DNA of 64,000 bases from Escherichia coli. GTDB lineage: Bacteria; Pseudomonadota; Gammaproteobacteria; Enterobacterales; Enterobacteriaceae. The position numbers were made by a program. Shown piece after piece: positions 1 through 6,000 of this stretch (within the stretch, counting starts at the first letter, position 1; the number at the start of each line of letters is the position of its first letter). The stretch lies in NCBI RefSeq assembly GCF_045037415.1, contig NZ_CP173438.1; one strand, given 5' to 3'.

Positions 1-3000
1 TCAATTCACTGGATAATCCTTATTACGCCTCGGAAGCGAAAGGTGCCAGTGAAAAAGCCCAGCAACTGGGATATAAAACGACCATTCTTTCTCATGGTGA
101 AGATGTCAAAAAACAGAATGAACTGATCGATACTGCAATTGGTAAAAAAGTTCAGGGCATTATTTTAGATAATGCCGACTCCACTGCCAGTGTTGCAGCC
201 ATTGAAAAAGCAAAAAAAGCAGGTATTCCCGTTATATTAATTAATCGCGAAATACCTGTGGATGATGTTGCACTGGTGCAAATTACCCATAATAACTTCC
301 AGGCTGGCTCGGAAGTTGCCAACGCATTTGTCGAGAAAATGGGAGAGAAAGGAAAATATGCCGAACTCACCTGTAATCTTGCTGATAATAATTGCGTAAC
401 TCGCTCGAAATCTTTCCACCAGGTTATTGACCAGTTCCCTGAAATGGTCAGCGTGGCGAAGCAAGATGCCAAAGGCACGTTAATTGATGGCAAACGAATA
501 ATGGACAGTATTCTGCAAGCCCATCCCGATGTTAAAGGGGTGATTTGTGGTAATGGTCCGGTTGCACTGGGAGCTATCGCAGCACTGAAAGCCGCCAATC
601 GCAATGACGTTATTGTTGTCGGCATTGATGGCAGTAACGATGAGCGCGATGCCGTGAAAGCCGAATCATTGCAGGCTACCGTGATGTTACAAGCACAAGC
701 CATTGCCGCGCAGGGTGTTACCGATCTGGATAATTACCTGCAAAAAGGAGTTAAACCAGCCAAACAGCGGGTGATGTTCCGCGGCATTCTGATAACCAAA
801 GATAACGCAGATAAAGTCCAGGATTTCAATATCAAATCCTGATCCCAGGTCGTTGCGCCCTCACAATGAGGGCGCAGAGGAGAATATTATGGATAAAAAA
901 GTCTGGCTGGCGCTGGCAATTCTGAGCCTGGGTGGATGTCGCATCGTCTCGCAGCAGGAACTTGCCGATCTCAAATCCCCGCCTAATCCTCATATGGCAA
1001 ATATCGATCAGACCTGGCAGAAAAACATCGTGCCGCAGGTGGTAGAAAATGCGCGTCCGGTTGCGGAGTTAATGGCGGCGCTACAGGCAGAAAAAGATGT
1101 CGATGCTGCCTGTAAAACGCTGGGCTATCGTTCTCAGGAAGAAAACCCGTGTATTTTCTACGTTAAGGTCGAAGGTAGCATCACCAATATTGATGCGAAA
1201 TCCCGTAGCGGAAAAATGACCATCACAGATATCAGCGGCACAAATATTGTCGTGCAGACGGGGCCAACTCTTCGCGGCACGCTTCTGCGAGATGCATATA
1301 AAGGTGCAAGCTATGAGCATTTTAACGATCAGGTTTTATTTGGTGAATATGGTCGTGCTATCAATGAGCAAGCCATCAATATGATTCAGTCGGCAAAGCT
1401 TAAAACCGGGGAAACGGTTCAGGTTTATGGCGTATTTTCTGCATGGGATATTCCGCAAACTATCCCGGATATAACGCCTGCGAAAATAGCCAGGGCGGGA
1501 GGCGAGTAATATGTTGCCGCAAGAAATTGCCCCCCCCCAGACTGATGAATCACCTGTAATCATAGAAACGCATGACTTATCGCGTATTTATCCGGGTGTG
1601 GTGGCGTTAGATAACGTGAATTACCGAGTCTATCGCAATAAAGTAAATGTGCTTATTGGTGAAAACGGTGCGGGTAAATCCACAATGATGAAAATGCTGG
1701 CGGGGGTTGAAACACCTTCCTCAGGCAAGATCATTCTTGATGGTAAAGAAGTCACCCTAAATTCTACCCATCAGGCCGAAAAACATGGAATTAGTATCAT
1801 TTTTCAGGAGCTGAATTTATTCCCGAATATGAATGTCATGGATAATATTTTCATGGCGAATGAATTTTTTCAGAAAGGGAAGATTAACGAAAAATATCAA
1901 TATGAATTAGCCAAATCTCTATTAGAAAGACTGGAACTGAATGTTGATCCCTATACCCAACTGGGAGAGCTAGGTATTGGCCATCAGCAACTGGTGGAGA
2001 TTGCCCGTGCCCTTTCTAAAGATACCCGGGTACTGATTATGGATGAACCGACATCGGCCCTCAGCCAGTCGGAAGTAAAAGTCCTTTTCAATGTGATCGC
2101 ACAACTGAAGCGCCGTGGTGTCACCATCATTTATATCTCCCATCGTCTGGAAGAGTTGATGGAGATTGGCGATTTCATCACCATTTTCCGTGATGGTCGC
2201 TTTATTAGTGAACGCGCCGTGAGCGATGCCAGTATTCCATGGATCATCGAGCAAATGGTCGGTGATAAGAAAAAACATTTCGATTATCAACCAGCTACAC
2301 AAGGTGACACTGTACTGGCGGTACAAGGGTTAACGGCGCTGCATCCCAGCGGTGGTTACAAACTCAATGATGTGACATTCAGCCTGCATAAAGGCGAAGT
2401 TATCGGCATTTACGGCTTGCTGGGCGCAGGACGTACTGAACTATTTAAGGGATTGGTGGGCCTGATGCCCTGTCAGAGTGGGAAGATCCAGCTTAATGGT
2501 GAAACCATCGACAAATGCCATTTCCAGGCGCGGCTCAAAAAGGGGCTGGCGTTGGTGCCAGAAGATCGCCAGGGCGAAGGCGTCGTTCAGATGATGTCGA
2601 TTCAGTCCAATATGACGCTATCCGATTTCAGCCTGCAAGGTTTTCGCCGTGCCTGGAAATGGCTGAATCCGCAAAAAGAGAGCGCCAGTGTGAAAGAGAT
2701 GATCCTGCAACTGGCGATCAAAGTCAGCGATGCCGAACTCCCTATTACCTCACTCAGCGGCGGTAACCAGCAAAAAGTGGTACTTGGCAAAGCGTTGATG
2801 ACCCAGCCACAGGTGGTGTTTCTTGATGAACCCACACGCGGCATTGATGTTGGCGCAAAAACAGATGTCTATCAGCTGGTGGGAAAAATGGCACAACAGG
2901 GGCTGGCAGTCATGTTCTCTTCTTCAGAACTCGATGAAGTCATGGCACTGGCAGATCGCATTCTGGTGATGGCTGATGGCCGTATTACCGCTGATCTCCC

Positions 3001-6000
3001 CCGGGGCGAAGTCACCCGAGAGAAACTGATTGCGGCTTCAACACCTCAAGATTAATCAGGCTGGAATTTCTTATGAATCAGAAATATATGATCTATATGT
3101 ACCTGTTGAAGGCCAGAACGTTTATCGCTCTGCTATTAGTGATCGCCTTCTTTAGCGTGATGGTGCCTAACTTCCTGACAGCCTCTAACCTGTTGATCAT
3201 GACTCAACACGTTGCGATTACCGGGCTGCTGGCAATCGGAATGACGCTGGTGATCCTGACCGGCGGCATCGATCTTTCCGTCGGCGCGGTAGCGGGGATC
3301 TGCGGAATGGTTGCCGGGGCTCTTCTAACAAACGGCCTGCCATTGTGGAGCGGCAATATTATTTTCTTCAACGTGCCGGAAGTGATCCTCTGCGTGGCGG
3401 TATTTGGCATTTTAGTGGGACTGGTGAATGGCGCGGTAATCACCCGCTTTGGTGTCGCGCCCTTTATCTGCACCCTCGGTATGATGTACGTCGCTCGTGG
3501 CTCTGCCCTGCTGTTTAATGACGGCAGCACTTATCCCAATCTCAACGGCATGGAAACGCTGGGCAACACGGGTTTCGCCACCCTTGGTTCTGGCACGTTT
3601 TTAGGCATTTATCTACCAATCTGGCTGATGATTGGCTTTTTGATTTTAGGCTACTGGATCACGACTAAAACGCCGCTCGGTCGTTATATCTATGCCATTG
3701 GTGGCAATGAATCTGCCGCGCGACTGGCAGGCGTCCCCATCGTAAAAGTTAAAGTGTTCGTCTATGCGTTCTCCGGGTTATGCGCCGCATTTGTCGGTTT
3801 GATTGTTGCCTCGCAGCTGCAAACTGCTCACCCAATGACCGGCAATATGTTCGAAATGGATGCTATTGGCGCCACGGTTCTTGGTGGAACTGCACTGGCG
3901 GGTGGTCGGGGACGTGTCTCTGGCTCGATTATCGGTGCCTTTGTCATTGTCTTCCTCGCCGATGGCATGGTGATGATGGGTGTCAGTGACTTCTGGCAAA
4001 TGGTCATTAAAGGCCTCGTTATCGTCACCGCCGTGGTGGTCGATCAGTTCCAGCAAAAATTGCAAAACAAAGTCATTTTGATGCGTCGCCATGAAGAAAA
4101 GATGGCCGCCGCACCTGCCGTAAAACCGCTTTCCAGTTAATTAACATCATTCCACCGGGCATTAAATTGCCCGGCTTATACAGGGGAAAAAATATGCAAC
4201 GTAATTTTCAGGGTAAGACTGTAGTTATTACCGGGGCATGCCGGGGAATTGGGGCCGGGATCGCTGAACGCTTCGCCCGCGATGGCGCAAATCTGGTGAT
4301 GGTTTCTAACGCTGAACGCGTACATGAAACTGCAGAGCAACTGCGCCAATGTTATCAGGCTGACATTTTGTCATTAGAAGTCGATGTGACAGATGAAGCG
4401 CAAGTACAGGCACTCTATGAACAAGCGGCTGCACGTTTTGGCAGCATCGATGTTTCCATTCAGAATGCAGGCATTATCACCATCGATTATTTTGATCGAA
4501 TGCCGGCTGCTGATTTCGAAAAAGTGCTGGCGGTGAACACTACGGCAGTCTGGCTCTGCTGCCGGGAAGCAGCCAAATATATGGTGAAACAGAATCACGG
4601 CTGCCTGATCAACACCTCTTCTGGCCAGGGACGTCAGGGGTTTATCTATACCCCACACTATGCAGCCAGCAAAATGGGTGTGATCGGCATTACGCAAAGC
4701 CTGGTGCACGAGTTAGCGCAGTGGAATATCACTGTTAACGCCTTCTGCCCGGGTATTATCGAAAGCGAAATGTGGGACTACAACGACCGCGTATGGGGAG
4801 AAATTCTCAGTACCGATGACAAGCGTTATGGCAAAGGCGAGCTTATGGCGGAATGGGTGGAAGGTATTCCGATGAAGCGTGCCGGTAAACCTGAAGATGT
4901 TGCCGGACTGGTTGCCTTCCTCGCCTCTGACGATGCGCGTTATCTCACCGGTCAAACCATCAACATCGACGGCGGCCTGATTATGTCGTAATGCCCCTGC
5001 GGGCTACTAAGAGAGATATCAAAATGATCGCAAAAGATTTTGCTCAACAATTGTTTGATCTCCACGATCGCGTCGCCTTTGTCACTGGCGCAGGTAGCGG
5101 TATCGGACAAATGATCGCTCTGGCTTTAGCCAGCGCAGGCGCACGAGTGGTGTGTTTTGATCTACGGGAAGATGGCGGACTCAAAGAGACGGTTAATCAT
5201 ATCGAAGCACTTGGCGGACAAGCCTTGTATTACACGGGCGATGTTCGGGAATTGAGAGATCTTCGCGCAGCAGTCGCTCTGGCAAAAACACATTTTGGTC
5301 GTCTGGATATTGCCGTAAACGCCGCTGGAATCGCTAACGCAAACCCGGCGCTGGAGATGGAAAGCGAGCAATGGCAACGCGTTATCGATATCAACCTGAC
5401 TGGTGTGTGGAATTCCTGTAAGGCGGAAGCTGAGTTAATGGTAGAGAACGGAGACGGTTCGATTATAAATATTGCGTCAATGTCCGGGATTATTGTCAAT
5501 CGTGGTCTGGAACAGGCCCACTACAACAGTTCCAAAGCCGGCGTGATTCATTTATCTAAAAGTCTTGCGATGGAATGGGTGAGTAAGGGGATCCGCGTGA
5601 ACTCAATCAGCCCAGGATATACCGCGACACCAATGAATACACGACCTGAAATGGTACATCAGACTCGGGAGTTTGAAAGCCAGACGCCGATTCAACGGAT
5701 GGCGAAAGTGGAAGAGATGGCGGGTCCAGCGCTGTTCCTTGCCAGCGATGCGGCGTCGTTCTGCACGGGTGTGGATCTGGTGGTCGATGGTGGCTTTGTC
5801 TGCTGGTAAAAATGGTTTCGCCCGCAGCCATCACTGACCGCGGGCGAAAGTGTAAAGCAGGTGCCTTACCACCCTGACCTGACAACCGGATATGCGGGGA
5901 TTGCTCCCCGCACAACGGCTACTTCTTCGGTTCGTAAGCGAGAACAGCCTTAAACTCAATATTACGTTCCTTTACGGTAAACTCACACAGCGAGTCTCCG

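Follow-up and report, generated by a model that had tools for sequence, protein, structure and literature searches.

What do some genomes of Escherichia coli take up and degrade through the genes that lie beside hokE? The window analysed in the present study, a 64,000-nt stretch of E. coli contig NZ_CP173438.1 (assembly GCF_045037415.1), begins with one unbroken series of six genes on the plus strand (1-5809), separated by intergenic gaps of 1-53 bp. These genes encode an ATP-binding cassette (ABC) importer with a DUF2291 lipoprotein and two classical short-chain dehydrogenases/reductases (SDR1 and SDR2). A sequence-only reading of the stretch had described an accessory locus for the uptake and oxidation of an unidentified sugar or polyol. 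We found that window 1-5809 very likely constitutes the distal six genes of a ten-gene D-apiose island of phylogroup B2, carried by sequence type (ST) 131 and by STc14/ST1193, in which import, two SDR steps, a kinase and a split transketolase would act in turn.

The D-apiose island between entD and hokE

The sequence surrounding the six genes was taken from L001, a locus of NZ_CP196261 extended by 12 kb on either side, in which positions 12001-18142 corresponded to window 1-6142 with 100% identity. Reading on from entD, L001 was annotated with the two halves of a transketolase, which lie on the opposite strand, then with a SorC-type regulator and an FGGY kinase, followed by the six window genes, hokE, a second hokE and ybdK. 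The full island comprised ten genes and about 11 kb in the entD-hokE interval, and the window holds the last six. The four island genes upstream of the window encode a split transketolase (aptA/aptB, L001 6861-8619), the SorC regulator and the putative kinase AplK (L001 10283-11803). All six window genes were annotated as intact coding sequences in L001, the identical RefSeq copy, which confirmed the six-gene, same-strand cluster of the sequence-only reading and agreed with its description of an accessory locus that combines sugar uptake with oxidoreductases. That reading had expected the regulator and the binding-protein start beyond the window; the upstream sequence contained both, the start lying 94 nt left of the window edge, together with the kinase and the split transketolase.

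The same locus has been published. Downstream of the enterobactin genes, ST131 and STc14 carry what was described as a "D-apiose degradation gene cluster" (J Bacteriol 2026, PMC13001218), with E. coli SE15 ECSF_RS02670-RS02715 as the reference (aplK = RS02700, aptA = RS02710, aptB = RS02715). It was reported for all complete genomes (100%) of ST131 and STc14 and for about one quarter of the E. fergusonii genomes. We compared this reference segment with L001 and observed ten genes of identical content and order; four protein accessions, those of the binding protein, ATPase, permease and regulator, were common to both (WP_000776799.1, WP_000937457.1, WP_001072401.1 and WP_001118418.1). Because SE15 RS02670-RS02715 contains the same ten genes in the same order, the window genes represent the transporter and SDR half of the published locus. 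The two also share their site between entD and hokE/ybdK, and the window differs in having one hokE only, a hybrid, and an IS150 copy within the hokE repeat.

The substrate assignment was supported by growth tests in the published work, in which 10 mM D-apiose as the only source of carbon supported ST131, ST1193 and E. fergusonii but not K-12 (PMC13001218); besides K-12 for comparison, the set comprised one strain of E. fergusonii and three of E. coli. According to the same paper, Carter et al. (2018) had proposed a D-apiose pathway in E. coli from sequence similarity. The locus is thus already known, from a prediction of 2018 and a description of 2026 that included growth tests, and the substrate that the sequence-only reading had left unidentified has been assigned as D-apiose. 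Its second element, simple oxidation of the substrate, was not upheld, since the kinase and the split transketolase point to cleavage of apulose 4-phosphate. ST131 and ST1193/STc14 are the two most recent of the pandemic extraintestinal clones of E. coli, and the island serves as a marker of these lineages; it provides them with a private plant-derived carbon source that may aid gut colonisation, a point already made in PMC13001218.

A K-12 derivative (locus L002) showed the order entD-IS186-hokE-ybdK, and the island was absent. In K-12, entD is followed by a 92-bp segment (L002 8001-8092) that corresponded to window 5817-5908, so the right edge of the island was placed at about 5816, where it is marked by a hairpin located in this segment. 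It had been claimed that the cluster replaces IS186 and entD beside hokE; the hokE neighbour and the IS186 of K-12 were as described, and entD is retained upstream of the window in L001. That reading had also allowed for a characterised operon present here in K-12-like genomes; the substrate has largely been assigned, and K-12 lacks the locus. In a megablast search of 5426 complete E. coli genomes, the segment was found at a coverage of at least 80% in 628, and in the remaining genomes the match was limited to the last 50-84 bases, a conserved stretch preceding hokE. The entD gene (in region L001 6200-6861) measured 660 bp in island-bearing strains and 621 bp in K-12. Its stop codon lies 1 bp from the convergent transketolase gene, so the island junction changed the 3' end of entD. 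PMC13001218 argues that entD was co-transferred with the island.

The proposed apulose pathway and the two dehydrogenases

The transketolase pathway for D-apiose (MetaCyc PWY-8089; credited to Carter et al. 2018, Nat Chem Biol 14:696), exemplified by Pectobacterium carotovorum, consists of the isomerase ApsI, the kinase AplK and the transketolase AptA/AptB. The E. coli island resembled such clusters in its split transketolase, GlpK-like FGGY kinase, SorC regulator and CUT2 importer with DUF2291. It differed in that ApsI was missing, two SDRs stood in its place and the transporter was paralogous. ApsI, a 472-aa Fucose_iso_C protein, had no match in L001 including the 12 kb on each side, and PMC13001218 likewise notes its absence from the cluster and hypothesises that the two oxidoreductases replace it.

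The kinase scored 493 bits on the GlpK model (cut-off 590). It was 73-77% identical to one set of kinases from isomerase clusters and only 46% identical to another (e.g., Necropsobacter and Buttiauxella). The transketolase halves were 71-81% identical to those encoded beside the Fucose_iso_C isomerase in 22 loci. As the kinase and transketolase are closely orthologous to those of the isomerase-type clusters, apulose is very probably an intermediate in E. coli. In ten loci (L052, L055-L057, L059-L061, L074, L075 and L081), AptAB was 71-79% identical to that of E. coli and the adjacent kinase only 45-47%. Two kinase lineages serve near-identical transketolases.

In the pathway that we propose, the CUT2 importer (binding protein, DUF2291 protein, two-domain ATPase and permease) would take up D-apiose, its presumed ligand, from plant pectins. 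SDR1 would reduce D-apiose to D-apiitol, and SDR2 would then oxidise apiitol at C2 to apulose, both roles and their order being putative. AplK would phosphorylate apulose, and AptA/AptB would pass the C2 unit from apulose 4-phosphate on to glyceraldehyde 3-phosphate, yielding xylulose 5-phosphate and dihydroxyacetone phosphate. The SorC-family regulator would control the genes through a presumed effector, and the genes from aplK to SDR2 may form one operon that ends at the hairpin.

The distribution of the SDR pair was examined in 80 loci from GTDB species genomes, which were collected by kinase-homologue alignment and scored against the ten E. coli proteins plus proteins taken from variant loci. 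In this comparison, aptA denotes the C-terminal and aptB the N-terminal transketolase half, the reverse of the naming in PMC13001218. The count was limited to the 41 loci whose transketolase halves were at least 70% identical to those of E. coli. SDR1 and SDR2 occurred without the isomerase in 12 of the 41, all from Enterobacterales and including E. coli, Citrobacter, Raoultella, Klebsiella spallanzanii, Cedecea, Pseudescherichia and Samsonia. The 472-aa Fucose_iso_C protein (Pfam E-value 1.2e-32), a distant relative of sulfoquinovose isomerase, occurred without the SDRs in 22. One locus, from Vibrio salinus, had both, and six had neither within 10 kb. The anticorrelation between the SDR pair and the isomerase was associated with a Fisher p of 2.5e-5, uncorrected for shared ancestry. 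The six loci with neither (L013, L014, L028, L039, L074 and L075) contained the transporter, regulator, split transketolase and kinase, and in these the apulose-forming step must be encoded elsewhere or performed differently, since neither isomerase nor SDRs are nearby.

Beyond Enterobacterales, SDR1 co-occurred with AptAB and the kinase in Vibrio, Marinomonas, Rhodobium and a Trueperaceae metagenome-assembled genome (MAG; L064), in which both SDRs adjoined the split transketolase. SDR2 homologues of 70-76% identity adjoined the split transketolase and kinase in Marinomonas and Rhodobium. The Marinomonas posidonica cluster (L084, CP002771 1102399-1123184) encoded SDR1 (53%), SDR2 (76%), AptAB (66-74%) and the kinase, no isomerase, and two ABC transporters, one of which had DUF2291 and a binding protein of the type of PDB entry 5IBQ, described below. 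In Rhodobium orientis, SDR1 (62%), SDR2 (70%), the kinase and a more divergent split transketolase (42-48%) occurred with a transporter of a third kind, and an isomerase was again absent. The SDR pair therefore tracks the transketolase/kinase module and not one transporter, which is the pattern expected if it replaces the isomerase step. M. posidonica is a seagrass isolate. Seagrass walls are rich in apiogalacturonan (PMC4483652), and the origin of M. posidonica is consistent with apiose as the substrate of the SDR variant.

NCBIfam equivalog cut-offs were used for the class calls of the SDRs and the transporter. Both SDRs contained the classical TGxxxGxG and NAG motifs, the catalytic Ser and YxxxK. 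SDR1 carried TGACRGIG, a FabG-like TGxxRGIG motif, and no Asp at the end of beta-2, as in NADP-type enzymes. SDR2 carried an Asp at that position, typical of NAD-dependent classical SDRs; it scored 210 bits on the GolD/DthD subfamily model, under the cut-off of 286, and its PDB relatives included galactitol and polyol dehydrogenases. These motifs, the polyol-dehydrogenase relatives of SDR2 and the pairing of SDR1 with a GolD/DthD-family enzyme in the type C loci considered below favoured an aldose reductase role for SDR1 and a polyol 2-dehydrogenase role for SDR2. From these sequence features, SDR1 is probably an NADPH-type D-apiose 1-reductase and SDR2 probably an NAD-type D-apiitol 2-dehydrogenase that forms apulose, and together they would probably carry out a redox-neutral aldose-to-ketose conversion of apiose to apulose via apiitol. 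Apiose 1-reductase (EC 1.1.1.114) is not known to have an assigned sequence. If the roles are correct, the island would supply gene identities for this enzyme and for a new apiitol 2-dehydrogenase. The redox reaction between apiose and apiitol is itself a recorded enzyme reaction (KEGG R03577, cited in PMC1686944).

A different explanation would be that the SDRs have nothing to do with apiose, being acetoin/butanediol enzymes or generic ketoreductases, and that a promiscuous isomerase encoded elsewhere isomerises apiose. The label "meso-butanediol dehydrogenase/diacetyl reductase" given to SDR1 by some sources and its score on the BudC model would agree with this, as would the six loci that have neither the isomerase nor the SDRs nearby. 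The scores themselves rejected SDR1 as an acetoin/butanediol dehydrogenase, since BudC gave 200.9 bits against a cut-off of 270 and the acetoin reductase subfamily 199 against 304, and Table 2 of PMC13001218 treats the predicted butanediol pathways as artefacts to which the apiose cluster gives rise. Moreover, SDR1 and SDR2 are syntenic with AptAB and the kinase in Gammaproteobacteria, Alphaproteobacteria and the Trueperaceae MAG, and the pair is anticorrelated with the isomerase. We regard SDRs unrelated to apiose as very improbable and retain the proposed apiose-to-apulose role of the pair.

The transporter and its binding pocket

The binding protein was RbsB-like and of the CUT2 class, belonging to a group of Enterobacterales proteins that we call A-type, and reached 149 bits on the RbsB model (cut-off 337). 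The ATPase scored 500-540 bits on the XylG, RbsA and AraG models, all under their cut-offs. Overall, the transporter components matched the RbsB/AlsB/YtfQ, XylG/RbsA/AraG and RbsC/AraH models, every one below the equivalog cut-off. Because the class models matched and all scores fell short, the transporter was assigned to the CUT2 class and to no named system. YtfQRT, RbsABC and the xylose, arabinose and allose transporters were ruled out by their scores below the NCBIfam cut-offs. For YtfQ, YtfR and YtfT these were 81.5, 422 and 158 bits against 510, 850 and 535, so the sequence-only reading was right in setting the locus apart from ytfQRT.

The public names of the window proteins include "D-ribose ABC transporter substrate-binding protein", "erythritol transport system substrate-binding protein" (Joint Genome Institute, JGI) and the butanediol label of SDR1; apiose is mentioned in none of the source names. 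The annotation of the window genes is generic or misleading and needs correction. The erythritol label was rejected as an identity, since the E. fergusonii "ery" locus, which consists of eryEFG and eryABCD homologues (Geddes et al. 2013, PMC3599248), is a different locus.

Several observations weigh against the pathway as proposed, and the first group concerns the transporter. The binding protein was 44% identical to that of the isomerase-type clusters, and the whole transporter is a paralogue. Its best PDB matches were 5ibq/4ry0 (Rhizobium etli RHE_PF00037, E-value 2e-79), which belong to the same RbsB-like fold class and are its best solved relatives. We take 5IBQ to be a complex with D-apiose, the structure search having returned the molecule name only. 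The E. coli protein was 49% identical to 5IBQ (270 bits), and the proteins of the isomerase-type clusters were 67-73% identical to it (444 bits). The pocket was defined as the ten positions aligned to the residues of E. coli RbsB that presumably contact ribose. The signature NYYNRRGNDL was invariant in all A-type (E. coli-type) and C-type binding proteins, and NFFDRRWNDQ was found in 5IBQ and in every binding protein of the isomerase-type clusters; RbsB has NFFDRRFNDQ. The E. coli protein thus departed from 5IBQ at five of the ten positions (FF to YY, D to N, W to G and Q to L), while RbsB kept nine. Because five of ten positions differ, the ligand or the binding mode may differ from that of 5IBQ; the pocket is remodelled and conserved, which would mean that either the preferred ligand or the mode of its binding has changed. 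An identity of 49% and the changed pocket would still be compatible with apiose binding.

The second group concerns the SDRs and the growth data. An NAD-type Asp was present in some SDR1 orthologues, which makes the cofactor argument for SDR1 weak. An apiose reductase from apiose-grown Aerobacter (Klebsiella) aerogenes was reportedly described in 1970 and is said to have used NAD; K. aerogenes has close homologues of the kinase (84%) and SDR2 (89%). The Vibrio salinus locus (L027 997-16900) encoded the isomerase (71%) together with SDR1 (68%), SDR2 (75%), AptAB, the kinase and a 5IBQ-type binding protein, so the SDR pair is not a simple substitute for the isomerase and the two are not strictly exclusive. 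Type C loci of Dickeya, Serratia, Pantoea, Erwinia and Rouxiella combined the A-type transporter (73-89%) and SDR1 (78-87%) with a DeoR regulator, an SDR that belongs to the GolD/DthD family (304 bits against a cut-off of 286), a kinase of 62-67% and a split transketolase of 44-47% identity. Type C is an uncharacterised sister pathway; its loci were L029-L032, L034-L037 and L050 (e.g., Dickeya oryzae L035 1931-12323). Finally, the D-apiose growth data are correlative, comparing strains.

These observations might indicate that the transporter and SDR1 are mainly suited to a related ligand, such as D-apiitol or some other sugar or polyol with a branched or short chain, which feeds the apulose/transketolase route, and that growth on 10 mM D-apiose reflects a side activity or another transporter. 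The distinct pocket and the distance from 5IBQ are in line with this, as are the erythritol label from JGI and the company that the A-type binding protein and SDR1 keep in Dickeya, Serratia, Pantoea and Erwinia, namely a polyol dehydrogenase with a divergent kinase and transketolase. On the other hand, cluster-positive E. coli and E. fergusonii grew on D-apiose and K-12 did not (PMC13001218), and apulose is a very probable intermediate, given how closely orthologous the kinase and transketolase are to those of the isomerase-type clusters. Apiose requires two SDRs, whereas apiitol would require just one, and in Marinomonas and Vibrio salinus the binding protein found with SDR1 and SDR2 was of the 5IBQ type. 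We consider a different principal ligand unlikely, and because of the growth data and the close kinase and transketolase orthology, the assignment to apiose stands despite the divergent transporter.

For D-apiose as the substrate, the logic of the SDR pair resembles that of the fungal xylose reductase/xylitol dehydrogenase route, in which an aldose is converted to a polyol and then to a 2-ketose before a kinase acts. The fungal route uses an NADPH-type reductase and an NAD-type dehydrogenase and replaces the bacterial xylose isomerase. Its enzymes are an aldo-keto reductase (AKR) and a medium-chain dehydrogenase/reductase (MDR), whereas two classical SDRs are concerned here, the substrate differs and the E. 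coli route is a proposed one. We tentatively suggest, with slightly less than an even chance of being correct, that apiose isomerase is bypassed by SDR1 and SDR2 in a two-enzyme route not described before, and that the A-type binding protein, with its remodelled pocket, has independently acquired a second specificity, either for apiose or for a branched sugar or polyol related to it. This binding protein also serves the sister pathway of Dickeya, Serratia and Pantoea.

DUF2291 and other features of the window

The DUF2291 gene was found in 55 of the fetched loci and lay between the binding-protein and ATPase genes in every mapped locus. It occurred with both transporter types, with 22-31% identity between types. 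DUF2291 is a conserved accessory gene of the transporter family. An AlphaFold model built from a 25-sequence alignment had a predicted local distance difference test (pLDDT) score of 89 and showed a helical N-terminal part and an OB-fold. A sequence search of DUF2291 against the PDB gave no match; a fold search matched it to TM0957 of Thermotoga maritima (PDB 2F4I), a hypothetical OB-fold protein with 15% sequence identity. Our literature search found no paper mentioning DUF2291.

The coordinates of the features, based on the open reading frame list and on RefSeq-annotated starts, are given in Table 1. The hairpin 3' of SDR2 is, by its sequence and position, a probable terminator of the aplK-to-SDR2 operon. 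Promoter-scan matches were no more numerous than in shuffled sequence, and an Rfam scan of window 1-9000, including the hokE region, gave no family at threshold.

Table 1. Genes and other features of the island end and its right flank in the window.
Feature	Position	Strand	Basis or remark
Periplasmic substrate-binding protein gene, 3' 842 nt	1..842	+	311 aa in full; WP_000776799.1, L001 11907-12842
DUF2291 periplasmic lipoprotein, 206 aa	889..1509	+	Pfam PF10054 E-value 1.3e-43; lipobox LGGC
ABC ATPase with two fused nucleotide-binding domains, 514 aa	1511..3055	+	single-domain ABC models match two stretches
ABC permease, RbsC-like, 355 aa	3073..4140	+	RbsC model 273 bits, cut-off 398
SDR1, classical SDR, 265 aa	4194..4991	+	no NCBIfam equivalog cut-off reached
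SDR2, classical SDR, 261 aa, unnamed family NF004774/PRK06114	5024..5809	+	NF004774 508 bits, above cut-off 360
G+C-rich hairpin, 15 pairs, directly 3' of SDR2	5816..5849	.	hairpin search
hokE toxin gene (context, outside the pathway)	5919..6071	-	WP_000956465.1
IS150 (IS3 family), inside the hokE repeat region (context)	6143..7582	-	collinearity with L001 breaks; IS3-like element, IS150 family transposase annotated
ybdK, after IS150	7959-9077		

The hokE region of most island-bearing genomes consisted of two tandem repeats of about 500 bp each. Window 5817-7732 contained a single hybrid hokE, whose left part corresponded to repeat 1 and whose right part corresponded to repeat 2, with IS150 at the junction. 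Window 5700-8000 was covered to at least 80% in 455 complete genomes, mostly those with two hokE copies and IS150, and among the twelve best matches listed it was unbroken in NZ_CP070593 only.

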